A stretch of 62,966 nucleotides of DNA, filler included, from Rhabdomonas costata (taxonomy: Eukaryota), in assembly GCA_019059605.1 (NCBI GenBank). It is 27 parts of 27 records of this genome, joined end to end, with 100 filler letters (N's around TTAATTAATTAA, not from the genome) between each part and the next. Parts side by side here need not be neighbours in the genome. Positions count along the whole stretch, not along the records: positions 37,397 to 39,631 come from JAHMHO010004643.1; 26 more parts are not named here. The stretch is one strand, 5' to 3'. The notes under the pieces were generated by a model that saw only the letters and a program-made list of their open reading frames with translations, was not told where the DNA came from and did no database searches. Each line of letters starts with the position of its first letter. Position 1 is the stretch's first letter. Both the position numbers and the translations under genes were made by a program. Of this stretch, positions 30,601 through 62,966 are shown in pieces.

Positions 30601-30834
30601 AAAGACCCCAGGCCAGCTTTGGCTTAGCCCTCAATACCAAAAGGATGGGGGCATTCGTAAAAGATCGTCCCTTTGGGCAAGCTGTATGAAGAAGCTTCAT
30701 CAACGTCACGTGCATATGATGATTGAGCAGTCTCGTTTCGTTATGGAAAAGCACCTGTTTACCTGTGTTGCAGTAGTTGATGTCTCCTAGCACAGGAACA
30801 ATGAGAACATGCTTACGCTTCATACACTCTGCAG

Positions 30835-32493
30835 GTCGCCCTTCCAGATATCCTGTGCTAGAGATGGAGTTACATGAGATCGCGCTGCTGCACTCGCTTC
30901 TTGGACCGCTATACCCTGGCCTTCTGCAGCTTCGCCGTCTTGCCTTCAACCGGTACTTTGCCGTGTTCTCGTCAGACAACGACGCCCGTTCCGCCCTGAC
31001 GTCTAAAGCAAAGACCTTACTGGGCTTTCCTATCTCGATAAGCCCTAACGATGAGATGGGGGCGGTTGTTTTGGAGCTCAATGTCGACGGGATTTTCCGT
31101 GCACTGCTGCGCCCCATGTTGGAGAGAGAGGGTGTGGTGGGCTTTGAACTGCGTCTGCACGGAGTGCGCCAATACTGCGAGCTCACAATGGTGAACATCC
31201 AAGCGGCGGAGCACCTGCTTTCGCGGAAAGCAGTCCAGTGCCTGGACTTGTTGCTCGCACTCAAGCCGGGAGCTAGCCACCCACCCTTTCAGCCCTCCTC
31301 AGAAAAAAGCAGCCCTACGGGACCTAATTCGCCTGAACTGACCTCACAGCCCTCCTCCGCAGCTAAAACCCTCCCTGCTGAATGCCCTACGTCTGACCTG
31401 CCTGACTGCACTCCATACTATACCGTGTTCGCATCTGTAGATCTCCCCAAGCTTCTGCAGAGAATTTTGCACCCAGTGTATCCCTGGGTTCAGCGTGTGA
31501 ACTACTTCCCGAGCAGCGGGCATGCCACCGTCAGCTTTGGCACAACCGGCGCGGCTCAGGCCTCGATGGATCTGGGTAGGGTGCATATTGGCAATTATTT
31601 GGTGCGCCTCAGTACAGGACGTGGTCTGGAGCCAAATCAGGCTAAGATGGAGCAACCCGTGGGCGCACTGCAGGCGGCAATAAAGGAGGGGCTTGCTGAG
31701 TGCGGTGTGACGGGGGTCATCCTGGACCGCCAGCGTGCAATTCTGTTGCTTCGGACTCGGGAGCAGCGCGATAAGTTGCTTGCTGGGGGAGCTGTCGCTG
31801 TGCAGGGGGTAACCTGCCTTCTTCGGAGCGGTTTGCACCACCACCCACCCCCCTCCCGCCTGCTTACTACTGTGCTTCTTCTTCATTCCATCTCTTCGGT
31901 CACCGCTGCATTTTCCTGTCCTGGTTTTGTGCAGTGCTGTAGGTGTGCTGTTGCGATTGCCATCTTCAAGGATTGCACAACCCACAGCTCCCTTCATATG
32001 CTCTGCGTATCCCGGGCTTTCTTTCTGGTCTACCGTATATGTTGTTATAGGCTGGGGCCATGAGGTCCTCCCTGTCCCGCTCAAAGTCAACTTCAACGAC
32101 ATCCTGTTGAGGGCTTTCCTGCCTCACTTCCCAGGACTGGTTGGTATTTCCTTCCGCAGATCCAGCCGGGGTGTTGTCTTCGGCCAGTTTTCCACCTTCA
32201 GCGAAACCACGGACGCATGCACCTCTTTTCCGGAAGCCATCCTTGGCGTCCCTCTTGCTGTAGAAGAAGCCAAAAACAGCGAAAGGACCGTTGTTTTCCG
32301 GCTGGATGCGCACGCCGTGCTGGACAAGGCAATGGCGAAGGACCTTGAGCAGCACCGCATTACGGAGTTGTGCTACAAGTGGCCCCTGCCGTACTGTGTG
32401 GGCTTCTTCTCAGATTTAGAGGCTGTCACCAAGCTGCGCTCCTCACTGTCCCTTTCCATCGCGGGCGCCTTGTGCACTATCTACAGGCATTGA
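30835..32493 (+). CDS. Unassigned protein with six divergent RRM-like modules (exons 30835-31830, 32051-32493)
   Basis: Two long frames joined in phase by a GT-AG intron (AGC G|GC TGG); internal repetition; TGA stop. Confidence 0.7.
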
Positions 32494-34660: not shown

Positions 34661-37419
34661 CTATTTTTCAGGAGCACTATGAAACCGCCACTGACTGGGA
34701 AATCCCTCCAAGTGCTTTGAAAGCACAGCACTTTGTAATCCGTGGGCTTCATTGAGATCCTTGCCCTCACCCAATATCACGATGTCAGACTTTTGACCGT
34801 TCACGATAGAACTTTTCGCAATCAACATCTCGCTCGGAAAACAGGGACAACCCAAAACAACTTTATCTCTCTCTCGCGCTTCTCTTTGCCCATTGTATAT
34901 CGGCCACCAGTTTTCCGGGGAATGCACAAATTCAGACGAAACACAATCGGGAGACACCCACNNNNNNNNNNNNNNNNNNNNNNNNNNNNNNNNNNNNNNN
35001 NNNNNTTAATTAATTAANNNNNNNNNNNNNNNNNNNNNNNNNNNNNNNNNNNNNNNNNNNNGTGTTTTTATATCCAATGTTGACAATTTCTCCCGTAGAT
35101 CAGTGTTTTTATTTCTGTTTTGCAGGGTTAGAAAGCGATGTATCCTCCTCGGAGGGGGGGTCCGGGGGGAACCTCCGGAACCTCCCCGGGAACTTAACCA
35201 ATAAAAAAGGAACACTGCTATACCTATGCCGAATGTTCTTCGAATTGAACAGAGGCAGCAGCACGCGAAACAATCGTGTGCAGGCAATATGTCAACTGTC
35301 TCGATATGTAACCACCTTTCTCCTATTAAAAAAAGAGAGAAGCAGCATCCCAATGGACAGCGTGTTCAATGACTTGACAACACACAAAAACACTCAGATG
35401 GCATTGAAGTCAGAACTTCAGGGGCAGCAGAACGAATGTGAAGGATTGAGCGCAGAAGGAAAGCAGCAGATACCGGAAGATAGCCCACCGGGAACGAGAA
35501 GGTGTGGGCAGGGCGACCAGCACGAAGATCCTGTGTCCATCACAGAAACACTGAAGGAACCTCAACGGAATGTTTAAATGATTGACCCTAACGATTAAAA
35601 ACTATGTCAAAGCAGACAAACACAGAAAAATCCAAAATCCATTTCAAAACGTGGAGCATGAAAAGAGTTGTGTTGAATACATGCATGAATTAATTGTTTT
35701 GGTGATGACAAAAAAATCCTTCGGACCCACCGCACAATTAGTAACCCAATTAGAAACCTATGTTAGTCCTTGCACAATCTTTGTTCTATGTCCTAAGTTG
35801 TCTTTGCAAATTTTCAGATGGAATCAGACGAGAATCGCCAAATATGTCATGCAGGCCAACAGCAGGCTTTTACGCCGATTAGCGCCCACAGCTCCCGGAG
35901 TAACAAGGAATTCTATGGATGGCGGCGTTTTGGCGCCCTTCAGGTGTCGGTATCATTCGAAGATTCGAAGGATGTCACAGGCCTGACTTGGCAGCTTGCC
36001 CGTGTTTCAAAGCGTGACGTTAAAAAGCGCGTACCTGTTGGAACAGGAAGTGCATGATGCTGAAAAGCCTTCCCTGGGGGTTCAGCAAAGTTTTAAGTGC
36101 AGCGTCAACGTCGGCATGAGCGTCGCTCTGGCACAACCATGATCTGCAAAAGAAAACGGACAACGCAGCAAGCCACCAAGAGAGCAAGTCAAAAAAAAAA
36201 AGAAACAGAAACGACGCTGCAAACCGAGCATGCTCAAAGTGCACGCTGGGGCCTGGTCTCCCGAAAACTTTTTGCAGAAGCCTTTCAAAAAGCTCATTCT
36301 GAAGGAACACGACAATTCTCTCAGTTTCAGCATCGAAACGGGCTCCAGAAGGTGGGAATCTTACTTTTGACAGCAACACGTCTGAAAAAAAGTGCAGCGA
36401 ACGAGGCCGAAACGGAAATCACAAACTGGAGAAAAGCTCCCCACCAAAAAAGTTGGAAAACAATCTGTCCGTGTTTGCAACTGCAAGCGCTGAATCCTTG
36501 CGAGCCTTGGGGGGTTCCCCAGTTTGCTGGCTTGGGAGGAGTCGAAAATGGGAGCTGGTAGGCCGTTTTGAAGTTTAAATGGAGTTACATGGAGTTAAAC
36601 GGCGTAAATGGCGTAAAATTCGAACACCGCCCTAATGGCCCCTGGTGTTTTACTGGTGTTTTAGCACCTTAGCACGTCCCTTAGAGGGGACTTCTAATAA
36701 CCTGTCCTTGGGGGGTGTTGGCAAAGTTTATCTAGCTCTCTTACATAAAAATAAGGTCATTTCGAGGGTGCTGGCATGCTTGATGGGACCGCTTTTAGTT
36801 AATTTACCAAAAATCTTAAGCCTGTTTCCTGTTACCACTCGTAAATGTTACCAGTGGTAACCGTTACCACTCCCCACGCCCAACTTCCATTTTGCCGACA
36901 ATCGGAACACTGAATTTGCTTCGCGCATGTGTTATGCTCGTGTGCCATTGTCCACGCGGTCATAGATGCCTCCACGTGCCTGCCACCACACCCACAGCTG
37001 CATCAGGTGCATGTTACCCCAGCTTACTGGTGCAGCGCAGGTTTTTTTTTGCATCGGTGAAAGCCCGTAGGATTGTCGATCGTGTCGCAGTAGCTGCATG
37101 GATGATGTCGAACTCCATCGAATTTTTGTATATAGTGCAGGAAAATGGCAGAGTGATGGTTTTTCACTGTTAAAGAGATGCACAGGATTCCATCCTGGAA
37201 TGGGTCAGTACTCCAGCCACCCATTCTCTTCTCTCCTTCTCCACGGAACTGTCACAAGGGGTCTTCCTTTGGGTGGGCCGTAGCGAACCCCACCACNNNN
37301 NNNNNNNNNNNNNNNNNNNNNNNNNNNNNNNNNNNNNNNNTTAATTAATTAANNNNNNNNNNNNNNNNNNNNNNNNNNNNNNNNNNNNNNNNNNNNTTGT
37401 GGGTGTGTTTGGGGGGTTG

Positions 37420-39542
37420 GGGCGCGGATCACAGGCTACCACGCAAAGTTCGGAGGTGAACTCAGGCGGGACTTCAGCCGAGGGGCCCTCCTCCGCGCTG
37501 CCCAGCAGCAGGGCTTGCGCTGCCCAGGCCTCCAGGGGGTCCCCACAGCCCCACCGGATGGGTTGCCGCAGCACCACCTCCCGCACATCGGCCACACAGC
37601 TCCGTAGAAACCCGCGGAACCGCACCGCAAAGCCCCTTCCTGTGCCCTCGTAGCTGCACGAAAGGAAGGCGGGGCAGGTGGGACTGTCCACGTCTGCTTT
37701 CAGTCTGATTACATGGGTCTCCCCAAATTGAGATGAACTGTGCAAACGGTCACCTTATTTCGGACCGAAAAGGTGACTTAGTTGGCCGGGGGACACCATG
37801 GTCACGCGGGACCGAGCCAGGGAGACCTCACAAGGACCTCAAAATGTGTCAGCAGCATTTTTGTCGAAGAATTCCACACGTCAAATGTGCCCCCCTTAAA
37901 GTAAAAAGGCTGACAGGTCAGGAAGAAGTAGGGTGCGGGCAGTGTAATAGCCACTCAAAAAGGCAGCTAAGTCTCTCTAGTCAAGGTCGAAGCATGGACA
38001 AGAAGGGCATGCCCGTGAACAGTGGTAGCAAAGCTAATTTTGGGGCATGCCCTGACCAAGGCCTTCAGTGTGTCGACGGGAAGAACAGCAGCCTCGGCGA
38101 CGAGGACCAGGTCCACAGAGCGGGCATTTTCCTGTGAAACGCAGCGAGCATGAAGGTCTGGCTGCGCCCTGGAAAAGAGCTAAAAGCAAATGCCCAGCAG
38201 TATTGCAAAAATGACCAGAGAGTTAACAATTAACTGGGGCGATGGATATAGCACAAAAAAATGCCCAGTGTGAATCCAACTCCAGCCAGGCACTGAATTC
38301 TCAAGACGTCGTTTATCCCTTGGTCCACAACATGTGTGAATCGTGCTCCAAAGTATCAAACCGCAACAATGACACTCGAAGAATCGTTTGATTACAGACC
38401 TTCAGCAGCACATCATACGGCAGCAACAGCTGGACGCGGTCATGGACATCACCAATGAGCGGCTCTACGACAGCTTGGATGTTGCCTAAAACGTCCTGCA
38501 CAGCAAGCAAAAACTCACTCTTGGGTGCAGTTTCTTCTCACACCCTCCACCCCGTCCGCCCAGCCTGCGTGCATCCCTCCCACAATCCAAAGACCTGATT
38601 TTTTAACCTGCCGCAACCACGTTGCCCTATTCCACAACATGAGTGATAGAACCCGACAACCTCGGACGGAGCCACAAGCGCAACACTGGATATTCCAGTG
38701 ATCATCGGATCCCTTGTCAGCAGCATGGCAGCCAGGCCCAGTGCCGTGGACTTCCCCCGGCCACGGTCCGCAAGAAGAAGCACGACCTCACACGAGGTTC
38801 GTCTACCACGCGAAAAACCGCACAATGAAACAAAAATATGGGGCATCAGCTACCCGTCACCACTGAACATTTCGGTGAGAATTCTTGCTGCGGAATCTTT
38901 GATGGTTGACGATATGAGGGGAGGTGCATCTTTGAACAATGCCCTGCTGGGATCACGGTTTTAGCCACGGTTTTATGCAAACTTGTGCAGTGATGAGGAG
39001 ACCATCCCATAGAGACAGCATGCCCTTCCATCAGGAGGCCAACACAGTTTTGTTTCCTGCGTGTTTGTGTGCTGCCTACTTGTCCTTGCGGGGTTTCCTA
39101 AGGAAACTGCCGATTTTCTTATGTTCCACTTTTTGAGCAAACACGCTGTAATTCTATAAATGGCAAGAGCTAGCTTGACGAACATTACTCAGAGAACCTG
39201 CAAGGAGCGCAGGAAGGCCAAAAGGGAACAGAGACCGAAAAGATATTGGGTCGCACACCATCTCACCGGAGGTCTTTTAACTGCAAGTATTCTTTTTTTC
39301 AATTTCGTTTTCGTTTTTGACAAAACTTTTTTATTCCAAAACAAAATCCTCCTGTAAAAAAATCTCTCCTGGAAATTAAAATTCAAAGGTGAAGAGGCTG
39401 GGCCATGTTTTCCAGCACCTTCCTTGAAATGGCCGCGAGCGATCAGTTCTGCAAAGCCCGAGCTGCAGCAGCGCCTCAACAGCTTGCAGCTGGTCCTCAG
39501 TGGCCGCGCGCCTGCGTGCTTCAGCAAGAAGAGCGGGCAGAA
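37420..39542 (-). CDS. tmcA: Prokaryote-type tRNA cytidine acetyltransferase TmcA, helicase-domain part (exons 39542-39419, 38802-38661, 38495-38400, 38131-38013, 37653-~37420)
   Basis: TEDQ, ADRGRGKSTALG, LVAEAAVLP, FATTVHGYEGTGRGFAVRF and LRQPIRWGCGDPLEAW; all four introns are phase-consistent. Confidence 0.88.
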
Positions 39543-39860
39543 CTGCGGCAGACGGGTTCACTCCCAGCGGCCCGGAGAATGAAGAGGAAAGTGACTCGCC
39601 AGCCCCATCGGTAAAACTGCACAAAAAAACCNNNNNNNNNNNNNNNNNNNNNNNNNNNNNNNNNNNNNNNNNNNNTTAATTAATTAANNNNNNNNNNNNN
39701 NNNNNNNNNNNNNNNNNNNNNNNNNNNNNNNTGGGGTTCCGAGTCGGTGCGGGGCAGTTTTGTTGTTCAGGGGGATCGAATTAGTCCCCCACCCCCAATT
39801 CTCCAGCTTCCTGAGATGCAGTTTTCCCAACCCTGATAATTCACACTTGTTTGCTACCAG

Positions 39861-41945: not shown

Positions 41946-43258
41946 GTTTCCACACACTCGANNNNNNNNNNNNNNNNNNNNNNNNNNNNNNNNNNNNNNN
42001 NNNNNTTAATTAATTAANNNNNNNNNNNNNNNNNNNNNNNNNNNNNNNNNNNNNNNNNNNNGTCAGTGGTTTCGTGTGTGCCTGCGAGTCGAGGGTGTTG
42101 GGGGTCGGGTTCTGGGGTTGGTGAGGTTGGGTTCGTGGCTTTGAGTTGGTGGGTTACAGTGCTTTGTGAGTGCGTGTGTGTCTGCGAGGCGAGGGTTTCA
42201 TGGGTTCGGCATTCTGGGGTTGGGGTTGGGTTCCTGTTTCCGTTGTTTGCTGGGTTCCGTCGCCCAACCATCCTCAACTCGCAGACACTAACCCTCTTAC
42301 CTTCTACGCATTCTTGGGTGCAAGGGATGTAGGGATGATGCATGACTGTACTGCCTTGATGTGTGATGGATGTGAGAGGGGTATTTCATGCTTTCTTGAG
42401 GTCACGGTTTCAGAGGGTAGGGTGGATTTTAGGACGTAGGGGTATCTTGGCATTCCTACCTGCGGTGCCAGAACCCACTACTACGGCAAGACCGCGATGC
42501 ACTCTTGCCTTCGTGACCTTCCAAGGATGCCTTCTTTTATGCGTAGGGGTATCTTGGGGTGTAGAGGCATTCCTATCGCAGATGCCTTCACTGCTCGGTC
42601 ATGCCTTCGTGCCTCAGACATGCCCTCGATACCCTGATGGTGGAATAGCCGATGCATACGTTCCTCGACTTGGGGACACTTACTACTACGGCATGCCTCG
42701 GTACCCTCGACATGCCTACGTGGGATGTAGGAGGAATGGACCGCCTTATGGCGGGGAGTGACGACCAGTGGAGTAAAGCCATGATGCCCGCAAGGGGGAT
42801 TCTTTGCTGTCGTCAGGATGCCTCCCTCCGGTCGTCATCCTTCCTCCTAAATGTGATGGTTCCTGCCCCTGGGTGGGAAGGGTGGATTTAAAATGGCAAG
42901 TCATGCCCGAAAAAAAATGCAAAACAACAACAACCACAAAACAGACAACGTGCAGTTGCAACTTTTGCTGCCCCCCCGTAGGCCCCCGACCACGAGGGTG
43001 AGGGGGGGGGGTTACATTGGCCCACCAGGAAAGTTACCCGACAACACAATCCACTGTTCAGTTGCAAAGGCAGTTCACGAGTTCACGACCTTTTCCTTGA
43101 CCTCGCGGTAGGCCAAAACACTACAAAAGCCGTCGTCAGGGAAGAAAAAGGGTTTTAACGAACCAGTGAAAAAACTTAAATAAAAACACATGGTGTCAGG
43201 CTAATTCACGCTGTGCGGTTACGGTTGTGGAGACGGACAACAAAAAAGCCACAAGAAC

Positions 43259-43956
43259 CTGGGGCATGACTCGAAACTCTTTCAGCAGAAACTCATGCCC
43301 CAGAGTAGTCTGATCGATCATGTCAACGAAATGAGTCGTGGCTTCGTCGTGCATCACCCAGCCTCCATTCGCAAACCCCAACTGCCCACTGCAAGAAGGA
43401 AGACTGAGGATATCCCCAGTGAACTGACGGTGGTGAACCAACACAGCGAAACTCAGGACACACCTTTCCACTAAACCGCGGACTTTATTTTTTGTCTCAG
43501 CACTTTGCCTCCGCCACCAAATGTTAAAGAAGGCTTGCTCCTGAACAAGGCATGACACAGGTTGGACTGGTTGGAAGAAGTGAAAACAAAAAAAATTAAG
43601 TAAAAGAAAAATTGGCACTAGTACCACATGCACAAATTTCCGCTGCGCATTATGCAAAAGCGCTTGCACGACACTGTCGAGGATGCAATTGGTGCAGGCG
43701 TATTGGATCGTATTGTTGCACCCTACAACAAGTGAGGAGAAAGTGCAAGCGTCCGAAACACCACCATAACACCATAGGATCAATGATTGGAACCTAAGAA
43801 AGCACCTGTGGCGTACTGATCGACGGTCTTCAGCCAACCGACATCGTCATGAGAATGGCAAATGATGTGAACGTGTAGTTTCTCAGGGGAGCCAGAAATC
43901 GAAATGCAGGCAGCAAACAAACTCAAGATCACAGTGACGAACGAAACCCTGGGCAT
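43259..43956 (-). CDS. GH38 lysosomal-type alpha-mannosidase, first four exons (43956-43806, 43722-43625, 43540-43464, 43388-43259)
   Basis: Signal peptide, [32 protein letters not shown] and [25 protein letters not shown]. Confidence 0.96.
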
Positions 43957-44473: not shown

Positions 44474-46631
44474 GGATTCGACATATTCGGAGGGATGGGC
44501 GGATCAACGAGTGGAAGGCCACCGGCAAGCGGAACATCAGTAAAGCGGCTTCCAACCAGAGACAGGTACGACGACCTTCCCGTGCGGTGCGGTGCGGTGG
44601 GGGATCCGTTTTTGCCCACCATTCTACGTTTGCTTTCGACGAGATAATTCCTCAGATTGGCTTGCAAGTGTTTTGGGTCAAGCCACTGCCACCATCATCT
44701 TTGTTTGTTTAGCCCGTCTCCCTTTTGTTCGCTTTTCCCGTTGCATATCAGAAACTGCCCAGTTCCCATCTGTTTTACTGTGCATTGCTATAGCAGCTGG
44801 GACACTCCTTTCTGCGCCGTGCCTGGTCAGTCAAATTCGACCTGGTTGTGGTGGCTGTGCTCTCAATGCCTACTTGTCCCTTGTTTCGCTTAGAAACCTC
44901 ATCTTGTGTCTCAGGTGGTGATCGCCCAGGGGCAGGAGGTGGTATACTTCGAGTTGGACGCCGGTGGTGGCCTGATCGATATTTCCAAGCAGGACTTGGG
45001 GCAGGACGCCCTGTGCCTGGACGTGGGCCCCGTTCCCGAGGGTGCTCAACCGCTCTCTTCCACCCCGAACTTCTTCCTTTTACCGCCTCTCTCCCGGTGG
45101 GAAATATTTTAGCACATACCAATTTCGTGAAGGGCTACTTCATGGGGGATGGAATGGCGTGCTTTAGGCCCACATTATTTTTTCTTCTTGCACGCTCTTT
45201 GTCGCTGCTCTGCAGTGGGCTTGTTTTTGCACCTGCCCTCCATTGGTCCGTTGGAGTTCTTTCTTTGTGGTTGAATTTGTGTGTTTGGTGGTACTTTTGT
45301 GTTTGTGCGCGCGCCAAAAGCTACTGTCCATTTTTGACATTTTCCAGAGGTTGCTTGGATTCATACTTCAATCCCTGCCTGCCCATGTCAGTTGTCGTCA
45401 TTCCTGAGTGGCACGTGGCGACACCCATGATGCCTGTGGCTTCTCCATTTCCCCATCATATGATCGCTTCATTCTGCACTTCCGGTTTTTCCTTTGCTCT
45501 TGTGGCCTCTGTGTGGTGCTCCCTTAGGGAGGCAGCGGTCGAAGTTCCTTGTGGTGGGGTTCCCGGACCGCAGCGTGCGGGTGCTTTCGCTGGAGCAGGA
45601 CCTCACCCCACTCTCCCGCCTGGTGTGCACCGTGGAGCCCGAGTCGGTGATGCTCGCCACCATGAAAAGCGAGAGCGGAGAGGTCAGCCCTTCCCCCTCC
45701 TGCCCCCTCCTGCCGTCCCGCTCCTCACTGGCCACCTGCCCGTCTCAGCGAATTGCAGTATGCAGACCCTCACGGCAATTGTAAACATGGAGGTATCCGG
45801 TGCTCGTACTGGCGCAGAAATCAATTCACAAGTGTGAGCTTTGCAGCACCCGGGAAATCAGGTTTTTGACCGCAGACACGGATATCGTCTTCTAGTTTGG
45901 AGCACAAGATGCGACCAGTGCGTGGAGGATCTGATTTGTCTGGGGCCATAAATGGCGCATCCCTAAACCCTAGGTCCAAGACAACACCTACCTCTTTGTC
46001 GGGCTGAACAACGGCTTCTTCCACCGCTGCACGGTGGACCCCATGAGTGGGCAGATCTCCGACCAGCGTACTCGCCTGTGTGGGGCAAAACCAGCGAAGC
46101 TGATCAAAGTTCGAGCCCAGGTGTGTACAGCAGGGAGGGATGCATCTTGCTCTGCCCGTCAATTTGTAAAAGCACCGTGACGTCAGATATGCAGGGCAAG
46201 TGTGGTTCGGCCAACTGTGTGAGATGTGCCATGCTTGTGAGCAGCATATGAGAAGCATTGAGCTCGTCGTCGCGGGCATAAATTTGGGGAAATGCTCGGT
46301 TCGATCTTCAGCCTGTGGCACACTGTCTCTCTGGAAGCTTTTCTGCGCCTACACTGGAGACACTTGAACACTCGAGTACTGTTGGCACCCACTGGTTATG
46401 AGTTTTTTCTTTGTCTCAGTCACGCAGTCGTGAAGATGCTGAACATTGCTTTGCATAGATGATCTTCCTTGTCACCTTTGCTCAGGGCCAAAACGCAGTG
46501 ATGGTGCTGTCCAGCCGCAGCTGGCTGTGCTACACTGTGAATAGCAAGTTCATGATCACCCCGCTGGGCACGGAGATGTTTGGGTTTGCTGCGAACTTCG
46601 CCTCCGAGCCCTGCCCCGAGGGTCTGGTGAC
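44474..46631 (+). CDS. SF3B3: Splicing factor 3B subunit 3 (Rse1), 5 internal exons
   Basis: GIRHIRRDGRINEWK, NQRQVVIA, RSKFLVVG, GLNNG...VDPMSGQISDQRTR and LSSRSWLCY...FASEPCPEGLV; four GT-AG introns. Confidence 0.96.
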
Positions 46632-54547: not shown

Positions 54548-55947
54548 TCAGACAGTGGGTTCCTTGTACATCAGCCCGAGCTTCTCACAGATGTAGCGAC
54601 CCGCTGTGGTGGGGGGCTGGCTACCTCCCTGAAGGTCTGCCAAAGGGGTGACGTCGGCGTCGTAGTCGGCGTTGCAGAAGAACACGCACGAGTGGCGGGG
54701 CTGGCGCTCCGCGGCCTCCGCGATGAATACCCGGTGCACGGTGGAGCGGAACAGCCCGCCGGACCAGAACTGCATCAAGTCCCCCAGGTTCACCAGCAGA
54801 GCGCCAGGAAGCGGGGGCGCAGACAGCCATGCACTCGGGTCCGCGTTGGCTGCGAGGGCAATGACACAGGACAGCTGGCACCATTATTAGCGACGGGAAG
54901 TGAACTTCAGTTTGCTCCCAACCACACTCCAGGACCTCATTTTGCATTGCAACCCCTCCACTCAATGCACAAGTCTGAGAACCGGCATGGATAAGATAGA
55001 AATCAAAACTAAAAGGGTCTTCGCCCCTCCTAACTATCATTGTAAGCGGTGGTGAGGAAAGAAAATTTTTGATGGTTGTTTTTGTTTAATCTGAAACTCA
55101 GAGAGTTTCGTCAGTTTCGGGTCTTTTGCCTGTTCTTCTTTGTGTTTTACGCGAAAAATGGCGTTCCTGGTCTGCGAAAAGCGAAGTCTGGAACAACTGC
55201 CCCAGGGTACGCAGCACACGACCATTGCAGTGTGGAGGGAGGAGAAGAGAACGCACCGCTATCAGTGCGACGCCGCACCTCCAACCCAGGAACGTCATCC
55301 TGAGCCAGCACGGTGATCAGCCCACAATCCGTGTGCTCTCCACAGCCGACCCGGCTGCGGGCCACTGCGGCATCGGGTGGGGGAGGGTAGCGGAGCAACA
55401 GCAGCTGGGACACCGGGTCCTTCATCCTTTGCTCAAAGAAGCCCTCGGGAAGCTCCAGCGCCAGAGCAAGTCCTCGAGCCAGGGCTCGGCAAAGCCCCAG
55501 CTGAGCAGTGAAGTACCGGGACACGGTCTCCTTCCAGGAGCACGGGAGAAGGTCTTCCGCGGGCCAGGGGTTCGGCCCGTGCATGGGAGAGGAGGACCCC
55601 TCGGCGCCAAGCAGGAAGCTCTCCTTGAGGTCCGGAGCGGTTCCCCCGGAGGTGCAGTTGTGGGCACCGCCTATACCAGTCCATCCACGGTGCAGAGGAG
55701 ACAGTGTGGCGGCGAGCTTGACCTGCTTCTGCTCAGGAGGGAGATCAAATAGAGCTCGGGCAGCAGCAATCAAAGAGAGGGACAGGGATTGTAGCTCAGC
55801 GGGGAAGCCACGGATGTAGAAGAAGCCCCACTCCATGCAGGCCGCGCGAAGCTGGGCGGCGGTGGCGGCCTTCGCCGCGGGGTCACCGGCCCCCTCCCCG
55901 AAAAAGAGCGGGGCGATGTCAATGACAGGCAGGGACTCGGCGGGCAT
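54548..55947 (-). CDS. 2OG-Fe(II) oxygenase, IPNS/DIOX_N family, complete (exons 55947-55257, 54849-54548; 330 aa)
   Basis: LPVIDI, ACMEWGFFY, DLKESF, GPNPWP, HTD, VNLGDLMQFWS, STVHRV and RHS; spliced length 993 nt, in frame. Confidence 0.95.
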
Positions 55948-56363
55948 TTCGGAGGATGGACAACCAANNNNNNNNNNNNNNNNNNNNNNNNNNNNNNNNN
56001 NNNNNNNNNNNTTAATTAATTAANNNNNNNNNNNNNNNNNNNNNNNNNNNNNNNNNNNNNNNNNNNNGAAAGGTGGGAGCCCAGGGGAAAGTGGACCTCG
56101 AGTCCTCCCCAGAAAAAATTGATCCTTGCCAAGTCCACCAACTGTGTGTGTGATGTGTGTGCTTGTGTGAAGTGCGTCCTTCTGCTGTGCAGCCGGCTGC
56201 CCACCGTGGCAAGGTCTCATGCTCTCTCAGTCGACGGACAGAAATCGTGCCTGCATTCCTTGCCGGTTGTACACCTGAAGAAGATCGTCCTTTTTTGTTG
56301 TAATTTTCCGTGGTCTTTTCTTTTTATGTGTGTGTTTGGGTGCATGTGTGTCGGTTGCTGCAG

Positions 56364-60554: not shown

Positions 60555-62966
60555 CTGAAAGATAAAAGCACATACTGCAAGGCGACAGCAAAAAAAAAGA
60601 GCACCAAAAAAAGCAAAGCAACCCACCACCCCNNNNNNNNNNNNNNNNNNNNNNNNNNNNNNNNNNNNNNNNNNNNTTAATTAATTAANNNNNNNNNNNN
60701 NNNNNNNNNNNNNNNNNNNNNNNNNNNNNNNNGTGTTGTTGGATAGCACAACAGCTCTCAGCTGCGCCGGAATGCGTACCGTTTGTATCACTAACTTTTC
60801 GAAAGTATAATCTGGATACGGCTTCTAAACAACGCTACCAGTGGAACCAGAGGCAGACACCGTGTTAGACATAAGTGGTGGGGTTGCAAGCCGGACCGTG
60901 AAATTACTTTTCATCATTCGCTCTTTTCTTCGTATCAATTTTTAATGTCATTTGCCCAGAGAGCTTATTCAACCAACGCGGCGTACATTATGGCGCACTT
61001 TAAAGCAGTTTATCTTTCCACTTAAGCTTCTGGTATTACTGGTTGTTTTCACTTGCACATATGCTATTTGTCGTGACCATCAGTATGCCGCATATGTTTT
61101 CGCTTCTTAATCGCGTGAACCGCGTTCACAAATGCACTTTCCTGCTGTACATGCATTGACGTGCATTCTAATAAAAATGTTGGATATATTGTATACTGGA
61201 GGCGTCTACATCGATTCCTTATTCTGCGATGGTTTTGGTCTTACGTTCGCTGCGGATGTTAAGGAGTTCATTTCAAGTGCATCGTAGAATGTAGAATAGC
61301 AGCTCAGAACGTTCTACCCCAACTCATTTCACAGCCAGTCCAGCGCTTCATTTTGCAGCGTTTTTTGCGGAGACCTCTCCTACAATAAAGTGCGTGAAAA
61401 AAGTGCGCGGTTTCATATTCATTCAAATTAACAGCAATTAACAACGCATTGTTGCAGTATTTCAGAATGCCGCGTGATGTACTTTGTCGCTTGTTCTCTG
61501 CGCCCTCAGAGGTGCTACCTGCAGTTCACGACAGCAATTCAAGTTACCTTCCTAGCCACTGTCAACCCAACACCTGGCAGCACGACGTCGGAAAAAGTCA
61601 AAGATAGTGTCCGTTTCTCTTGGCACTCTTGCGTTGTCTTTGCACTGTTCTTATTTTCTCGCTCCGACTCCGCGTTCAAAAAGCGGCGTTATGAAAGAAA
61701 ACATCCCTTGCAATATCTCCTTTGTTTGCACGATCTTTCATCCTGAACAAAAAGCGGCGGCCTTTCACATCCCGTTCATCGCTTCTTTTAGCATAGGATT
61801 TTTCAAAACGCCAGTACGCAAAAACGTGCTTTAGCAGAGTAGAGCAATGGAAACTGACTGGGCAAAAACAGGCGCTGGAGCGGGGTCTGTGTACCTACGT
61901 GGTCGCGTTGGTCTGATATACAAAATATGGTCAGCTATAAGTACCTTTGTAGTGAATAGTTACCAGCAAACAATGGACTAAAGAGACTTGAGTTTTGCTA
62001 TTTGACGGACGAATTGGTTTCCAGTGAATACCATGACCCACACGGTAACTCATACCACAGGCGGAAAGCGGCGGAAAGGTGGATAATGGCATTCCAGAAT
62101 TAGAGTGAGGACAAGGTCTTGGACTGGAAGCTGCAGGGCAGCGCAGAAATCAGTGCAGCAGCGCAGCGGTGAAGAATAAAGAACTAGCACGGAAATCGAG
62201 CAATATAGTGAGTATTAATAAATTTCGGTTTGATATAGCTGTGATAAATTGGTCTGCAAAATCGGTGGAAAACTTTATCGCATTTTATGCCCATTTACCC
62301 CACTTTCAGCAGCAGAGATTACCCAAAAGAAGCAGAAGAAGGAGATGATCACGGTAAATTTTTAGTTAAGGTTTGCTAGCCTCTGTTTTGTGGAGTTGTT
62401 TGAAGGGAGGTTTTTATTTTAGGAAGGTAGGAACGACTCAGGATGACAAAGCTGGTGCTGGATCTTGACCTCTGTGCACTGTGTGTTGTTACGGAGGTGC
62501 TGTTGCCTTCTGTTTGGTCAGTTTGCTTTTTGGCTGTATGGGAAAATGGCAGAGTATGCTAGGCCATCACGCGCACGCAAAAATCAACGGCGCATAGCTA
62601 TACGTGGAAACACGTATGTGGAGTCGCTCCTTGTTGTTCATTCAGCAGAATGAGATGACTCGTGGGAAGCCGTAAAACCACGTTAGATGCCAGACAAAAA
62701 CCTGAAGTGGTAAAGACAAAGAAAAGTGTGAAAGTGCTTTATTTGGACGAGTAACACCAACATGTATACAACCTGCGTAAACCACGTTTTAAAAAGCTGT
62801 GGTAGCAGAGCTCCGTTAAATCGAACGTAAGCAAAACGCTGGACTACGCGACCAAAATGAAAACGTTTTGTTCGACCAGTAAATTCAGCTCTCCAAAATA
62901 CCCGCTACTTCCTAAGCCAAGAACCACCGTACAGAACTCAGAAACACACCGAGTGCAAAAAAAAAC

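Follow-up and report, generated by a model that had tools for sequence, protein, structure and literature searches.

A putative spliceosomal-intron-bearing gene of the prokaryotic TmcA type with an altered Walker B motif in Rhabdomonas costata

Results

A gene fragment with five exons and four introns

In a stretch of 62,966 bases from the genome assembly of the eukaryote Rhabdomonas costata (GCA_019059605.1), here called the window, one contig probably contains the central third of a nuclear gene that bears spliceosomal introns and descends from a prokaryotic tmcA, which would have been acquired by horizontal transfer and kept under purifying selection. The gene tmcA encodes an ATP-dependent tRNA(Met) cytidine-34 N4-acetyltransferase. 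An earlier inspection of the bare sequence (the sequence-only reading) had proposed an intron-containing TmcA of the prokaryotic type at this site, and the proposal was followed up by a computational analysis.

The window consists of 27 independent unplaced contigs of 2230–2247 bp each, which are chained in roughly descending size as a pseudo-scaffold. They are separated by 26 identical artificial linkers of 100 bases, each of which is composed of 44 N, TTAATTAATTAA and again 44 N (e.g., 37297–37396 and 39632–39731). Because the contigs are merely chained by linkers, neighboring contigs give no synteny, and any gene-neighborhood inference across the linkers is invalid. The sole contig that bears on the TmcA proposal is contig 17 (JAHMHO010004643.1; 37397–39631), which has a length of 2235 bp and a GC content of 0.529 and is flanked by an artificial linker on both sides.

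A gene model was built from the homology blocks and the sequence, and it places five exons and four intervening introns on the minus strand of contig 17. Exon 1 (39419–39631, 213 nt) is open to the contig end and codes for a linker and the TEDQLQAV motif (39501–39478) ahead of the helicase domain. Its homology begins at about residue 26, the first approximately 25 codons are uncertain, and no Pfam match was found in this exon. Exon 2 (38661–38802, 142 nt) carries the Walker A motif LLLADRGRGKS. Exon 3 (38400–38495, 96 nt, 32 codons) is weakly conserved; it spans the stretch from the APS to the DEAA region, the length of which agrees to within three residues with that in the prokaryotic homologue P0056. 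Exon 4 (38013–38131, 119 nt) contains the Walker B region LVLVAEAA (38110–38087) and the sequence FATTVHG. Exon 5 (37397–37653, 257 nt) is also open to the contig end and carries YEGTGRGFAVRF as well as QPIRW and GDPLEAW. Its last approximately 10 codons, which are rich in Pro, Asn and Thr, are devoid of homology and may already belong to a further intron. The motifs quoted in the sequence-only reading were all recovered on the minus strand, namely ADRGRGKS at 38771–38748, the intron-split FATTVHG|YEGTGRGFAVRF at 38032–37617, QPIRW at 37565–37551 and GDPLEAW at 37544–37524.

The introns differ considerably in length. Intron 1 (38803–39418) comprises 616 nt, has GT-AG borders, lies in phase 2, has a GC content of 0.443 and contains nine in-frame stops on read-through. 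Intron 2 (38496–38660, 165 nt, GT-AG, phase 0) contains one in-frame stop; its donor was picked by the best fit to the homologues, and a donor further downstream in that phase is possible. Three in-frame stops are present in intron 3 (38132–38399, 268 nt, GT-AG, phase 0) and six in intron 4 (37654–38012, 359 nt, phase 2), which has GC-AG borders and interrupts the Gly codon between FATTVHG and YEGTGRGF. All introns have a G on the exon side of the donor and a pyrimidine-rich tract followed by AG at the 3′-end, and three of them also cause a frame shift. The spliced frame consists of 275 codons without a single stop, in contrast to 12 and 8 stops in the other two frames, and residues 26–262 of the spliced product could be aligned to P0056 without gaps at the junctions of exons 3/4 and 4/5. 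The four introns that had been postulated were thus corroborated, with GT-AG borders in three cases and GC-AG borders in one. In addition, the GC content of the exons was 0.618 and that at third codon positions (GC3) was 0.644, compared to values of 0.44–0.53 for the introns. The GC3 of the fragment was close to the value of 0.639 that was found for a 2-oxoglutarate (2OG)-oxygenase frame on contig 24.

As the close relatives of the fragment are all prokaryotic, it was considered whether contig 17 might be a bacterial or archaeal contaminant. However, the homologous pieces are separated by four stop-containing GT/GC-AG interruptions with three frame shifts between them, the best prokaryotic homologues exhibit only 39–45% identity, and the Cys content of 2.9% lies above that of any of 80 prokaryotic homologues (at most 2.64%). 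Contamination is refuted by the interruptions unless the contig is an assembly artefact, and it was regarded as practically negligible. The sequence-only reading had rejected a bacterial contaminant on the basis of the introns, and this reasoning held.

The fragment resembles prokaryotic TmcA and not NAT10

Searches with domain profiles and with known proteins led to the same three blocks. The Pfam family PF05127 (NAT10/TmcA helicase) matched three separate frames in collinear order, i.e., at profile positions 2–35, 85–122 and 125–175, with E-values of 8.8e-6, 4e-6 and 1.4e-13; the bit scores, in descending order 51.6, 27.3 and 26.1, were all higher than the curated cut-off of 22.7. The only NCBIfam model that matched was NF041296 (haloarchaeal TmcA), the sole TmcA model of that collection, which recovered the three PF05127 pieces with E-values of 1.6e-17, 7.6e-6 and 2.2e-4. 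Its scores were far below the full-length cut-off of 700 bits because fragments alone were scanned. A tblastn search of the window with seven prokaryotic TmcA proteins revealed these three blocks and nothing else at E<0.1.

Comparison with proteins of known structure allowed a distinction between the prokaryotic and the eukaryotic type. Exon 5 could be aligned to TmcA of Escherichia coli (YpfI, PDB 2zpa) in one unbroken alignment over residues 291–336 with an E-value of 4e-4. The alignment with yeast Kre33 fell into two pieces with E-values of 0.06–0.07 (query residues 1–14 to Kre33 residues 414–427, and 16–50 to 457–491). Kre33 contains about 28 extra residues between YEGTGRS and PIRY, which are absent from the window protein. 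Searches of the PDB with exon 4 alone and with exon 2 alone yielded only matches at chance level.

An exhaustive HMMER search with exon 5 against 1.84 billion representative proteins gave 669 matches at E<=0.001. The best 150 of these had lengths of 96–960 residues and were mostly aligned in a single stretch, and the top match was P0031 with 61% identity. In a word-index search 25 of the 139 candidates had E-values of 0.001 or lower, and the named ones were bacterial TmcA proteins of Zooshikella, Photobacterium, Endozoicomonas and Nitrosococcus. A scan of species genomes gave 599 matched stretches, of which 496 code for a relative; the top 80 came from Gammaproteobacteria, haloarchaea, one Myxococcota and one Geoglobus. 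A metagenome scan did not yield a close relative, its top match being 62% identical over the exon with the highest conservation. The best relatives, with identities of 39–45%, were prokaryotic proteins that have the length of TmcA, and the spliced product scored highest against P0032 and P0056 (135 bits each). P0056 in turn matched E. coli TmcA with 216 bits in a single stretch, but the NAT10/Kre33 chains with only 78–104 bits in one to three stretches.

NAT10 and TmcA both belong to PF05127, and a match to this family would also be expected if the fragment were part of the ordinary NAT10/Kre33 orthologue of the organism. Yet exon 5 is devoid of the Kre33 insertion, it reads GRGFAVRF at a site where Kre33 has GRSLSLKL, and the scores of the nearest relatives against E. 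coli TmcA are about double those against NAT10. An orthologue of NAT10 is thus very improbable. The PDB scores and the missing insertion indicated that the fragment represents the predicted central helicase/ATPase module of a prokaryote-type TmcA and not of NAT10. The compact spacing that had been noticed in the sequence-only reading was verified by the unbroken alignment with 2zpa.

Conserved residues are retained with the exception of the Walker B aspartate

To analyze the conservation, 350 prokaryotic homologues were aligned to the spliced product, comprising 80 open frames from genome loci and fetched proteins of at least 550 residues. Of the 34 columns with a conservation of 90% or more, the fragment retains 33. 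The residues R-G-R-G-K of Walker A are each invariant in all 332 aligned homologues, and all of them are kept. Further kept columns are E-A-A of Walker B, T..HGYEG.GRGF, P.R and D.P.E. Only the Asp of Walker B deviates and is replaced by Ala in the fragment (LVLVAEAA). The homologues have Asp in 347 cases and Glu in 3 cases, and Ala was found in none of the 350. The Ala codon is GCC (38098–38096), which is a single base away from GAC.

A passage of Ikeuchi et al. (PMC2500205) gives AxRGRGKT/S and hhhhDEAA as the motifs of the TmcA family. The fragment has the first of these motifs and deviates from the second; its membership in the TmcA family is clear by descent and in doubt as an ATP-hydrolyzing enzyme, as far as can be predicted from the sequence. 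In P-loop NTPases the Walker B Asp holds the Mg2+ ion, and its replacement by Ala usually abolishes hydrolysis. By analogy, ATP hydrolysis by the encoded protein may be weak or absent, and its activity may be altered or lost. The Ala may represent a real functional change, a recent inactivating change or an error of the assembly.

This raised the question of whether the fragment is an inactive relic, that is, an acquired tmcA that is decaying or that is devoid of ATPase-driven acetylation and does not write N4-acetylcytidine (ac4C). A relic would be in accord with the Walker B exchange, with the long branch in the phylogenetic trees (see below) and with the fact that the gene is known from one unplaced 2.2-kb contig, the other domains being absent elsewhere in the window. 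In contrast, the 275 codons extend over five exons without a stop or a frameshift, a free-running pseudogene on such a long branch would be expected to have lost more than one of the 34 highly conserved columns, the exon GC and GC3 are higher than the intron GC and equal those of another host gene, and the Walker B change could be an assembly error. The kept residues, the intact frame and the elevated GC and GC3 of the exons argue for selection rather than free decay, and a relic was regarded as unlikely.

Phylogenetic analysis points to a prokaryotic origin

Three trees were calculated, i.e., a FastTree with 212 rows, a quick IQ-TREE with 63 rows and a careful IQ-TREE (LG+C20+F+G4) with 46 rows; eukaryotic NAT10 proteins were not among the rows. 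For the careful tree 17 of the 63 rows, which were either long or redundant, had been dropped (L055, P0098, P0150, L073, L050, L054, L022, L072, L078, P0017, L057, P0044, L080, L066, P0131, P0014 and L052). In the first two trees the fragment formed a long branch of 1.3–1.35 changes per column in no starred clade. The placements differed, FastTree positioning the fragment with Marinobacterium/Oceanospirillaceae (support 66), in contrast to an unresolved basal position in the quick IQ-TREE. The careful tree separated 15 named Gammaproteobacteria from 6 haloarchaea with a support of 99/95 and placed the fragment in a side of 33 rows together with all 15 named Gammaproteobacteria. The weak sister of the fragment was P0202 (70/89). 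The bootstrap of the careful tree had incompletely settled (correlation 0.952).

For the quick tree a constraint that joined the window fragment and P0031 resulted in a log-likelihood that was 40.6 units higher than that of the free search (p-value of the approximately unbiased (AU) test, p-AU, 0.914). As the constrained tree was better than the free one, the search for the quick tree had been incomplete. The window fragment and P0031 were not joined in the careful tree.

A prokaryotic origin of the fragment is well supported by these sequence comparisons, and horizontal acquisition from a prokaryote, as proposed in the sequence-only reading, is the simplest reading of the trees. The phylogeny with TmcA sequences that had been suggested as a check of this proposal put the fragment on the gammaproteobacterial side, and in this respect the proposal stood; the long branch left the donor unsettled. 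A gammaproteobacterial donor is the best guess, and no donor is named.

Further candidates for TmcA-type genes in eukaryotes

Two of the relatives are of special relevance as they might also be of eukaryotic origin. P0202 is a protein of 808 residues from the EukProt transcriptome set EP01001 of the euglenid Neometanema parovale, and it has the full TmcA architecture according to a precomputed Pfam list. It is 36.6% identical to the window fragment and contains TSDQLQAV and the canonical Walker B motif VDEAA. Its identity to bacterial TmcA is about 33% over the whole length, and it has no N-terminal extension relative to the latter. An ESM Atlas search with P0202 yielded only clusters of prokaryotic TmcA. 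P0202 may come from a second lineage of TmcA in eukaryotes or may be contamination of the transcriptome set.

P0031 is a frame of 296 residues on an ENA contig of 400,858 bases, which is absent from the 162 loci that were retrieved. Its homology to TmcA is confined to the middle, and the flanks are unrelated and rich in Ala, Gly and Pro. It has the canonical Walker B motif VDEAA, and there is no intron at the FATTVHG|YEG position. From its sequence P0031 seems to be one exon, read through into introns, of a further TmcA-type gene of a eukaryote. The Cys content was 3.6% for P0202 and 3.4% for P0031, and thus, like that of the fragment, higher than the median of 1.34% and the maximum of the 80 prokaryotic homologues. 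A clade of the fragment, P0202 and P0031 was present in 20% of the bootstrap trees and was not rejected by the AU test (p 0.307). P0202 and P0031 are leads and not findings. It is tempting to speculate that the scattered eukaryotes from which these three sequences derive share an old nuclear TmcA-type clade, which would be an unrecognized second ac4C writer beside NAT10 that acts on organellar or cytosolic tRNA(Met), and of which the form with a Walker B Ala would be free of ATP hydrolysis or regulatory; this scenario was judged to be improbable.

The weak affinity to a sequence from a euglenid transcriptome also bears on the question of whether the source of contig 17 might be another eukaryote in the material that was sequenced, and not the organism of the other contigs. 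It would agree with such an origin that the contigs are mutually independent and that contig 17 has no repeat in common with the rest. However, the trinucleotide make-up of contig 17 is typical for the window, being the seventh closest to the window mean among the 27 contigs, and the GC3 of the fragment equals that of the oxygenase frame on contig 24. A different eukaryotic source seems a rather remote prospect.

Other contigs of the window

Several observations were made on the remaining contigs. On the minus strand of contig 24 an open frame of 290 codons (55147–56019) encodes DIOX_N and 2OG-Fe(II) oxygenase domains. Its best named relatives are all from sphaeroplealean green algae, with identities of 64% for Raphidocelis, 59% for Monoraphidium, 53% each for Hariotina and Enallax, and 49–50% for Scenedesmus. 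Taken by itself, this one gene, which is the sole hint at the host lineage in the window, would point to a chlorophycean green alga. On contig 19 a stretch of 46 residues in an open frame on the minus strand (43196–43846) matches the N-terminal domain of glycosyl hydrolase family 38 (alpha-mannosidase) with an E-value of 9.5e-15, and this frame probably represents an exon of a gene of the host. Contig 27 (60733–62966) is a compositional outlier: its GC content is 0.443, and its trinucleotide make-up lies at a distance of 0.062 from the window mean, compared to 0.018–0.039 for the other contigs; its DNA may be of organellar, repetitive or foreign origin. Two open frames on the plus strand (30777–32063 and 44794–45837, 428 and 347 codons) are the longest of the window and had no Pfam match at E<=0.01. 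A scan of the whole window with Rfam resulted in no match at the gathering score, and a dinoflagellate spliced-leader motif was not found in the window; a dinoflagellate host was given up in view of the green-algal relatives of the frame on contig 24.

Discussion

The results are best explained by a nuclear gene of the eukaryotic host that originated from a prokaryotic tmcA, and this is regarded as likely. Several observations weigh against this explanation. The gene runs off contig 17 at both ends, and about 275 of the expected approximately 700 codons are seen, corresponding to about residues 149–364 of P0056 (687 residues). Pieces of TmcA_N (PF08351), of the GNAT domain (PF13718) and of the tRNA-binding domain (PF17176), the positions of which fall beyond the ends of contig 17, were found in none of the other contigs of the window. 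The fragment branch had a length of 1.05–1.35 changes per column across the trees and no starred clade holds the fragment, the support of the gammaproteobacterial side of 33 rows was 72/81, and a clade of the fragment and the haloarchaea was 25.9 log-likelihood units lower and was not rejected by the AU test (p-AU 0.132). Neither repeats common to contig 17 and the other 26 contigs nor a host marker on contig 17 were found, and the basis for the assignment of contig 17 to the genome of the other contigs is composition alone. Last, Walker B has Ala in place of Asp, and in vitro ac4C formation by TmcA needs the hydrolysis of ATP or GTP, as stated in a part of the study of Ikeuchi et al. (PMC2500205).

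The series of events that could have led to the present gene would have started with the horizontal transfer of a prokaryotic tmcA to a eukaryote, and the gain of introns, the adaptation to a host-like composition and retention under purifying selection would have followed. If the GNAT half exists, the protein may bind acetyl-CoA and a tRNA or another RNA and may acetylate a cytidine as TmcA does. By analogy to the bacterial relatives, the most likely target would be C34 in a substrate similar to elongator tRNA(Met). An ATP-driven mechanism is doubtful for the copy with the Walker B Ala. The organellar role or new RNA targets that had been envisaged in the sequence-only reading are speculation.

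Eukaryotic ac4C is attributed to NAT10/Kre33. Bacterial genes are common in algal genomes. A search of open-access full texts, supplements being outside its scope, yielded no account of a eukaryotic gene of the TmcA type. According to a section of Ikeuchi et al. (PMC2500205), Gammaproteobacteria and archaea possess the TmcA type, by which the wobble cytidine of elongator tRNA(Met) is acetylated. In portions of a review on chloroplast tRNA modification (PMC8877259) C34 of plastid tRNA-Met is reported to be unmodified, and one nuclear orthologue of a cytidine acetyltransferase is mentioned for Chlamydomonas, its type being unstated there.

If the interpretation is true, some eukaryotes may own a second, bacterial-style RNA acetyltransferase, and it would be worthwhile to seek ac4C34 in their cytosolic and organellar tRNAs. 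In addition, the gene would be a clean case of a bacterial gene that was domesticated in a eukaryote, with introns and a host-like composition. The value of this case is limited by the fragmentary nature of the gene on an unplaced contig, by the altered Walker B motif and by the activity being a prediction.

A comparison with the known systems reveals that the fragment is similar to bacterial TmcA (2zpa), with which it has in common the PF05127 domain, the Walker A motif xDRGRGKS, TxDQ, FATTVxGYEGTGRGF, PIRW, GDPLE and the compact spacing. It differs from bacterial TmcA in having four spliceosomal introns, a eukaryote-like composition and AEAA instead of DEAA, and in an identity of only 39–45%. 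Haloarchaeal TmcA resembles the fragment in that NF041296 was matched and that haloarchaeal loci were among the best matches of exon 5; in contrast, the maximum likelihood trees put the fragment across the split that was supported with 99/95. NAT10/Kre33 share with the fragment the PF05127 family and the class of RNA cytidine acetyltransferases, but the Kre33 insertion and the local sequence GRSLSLKL are absent from the fragment. Taken together, the TmcA family itself is known, and what would be new is a nuclear, intron-bearing TmcA homologue with a non-canonical Walker B motif.

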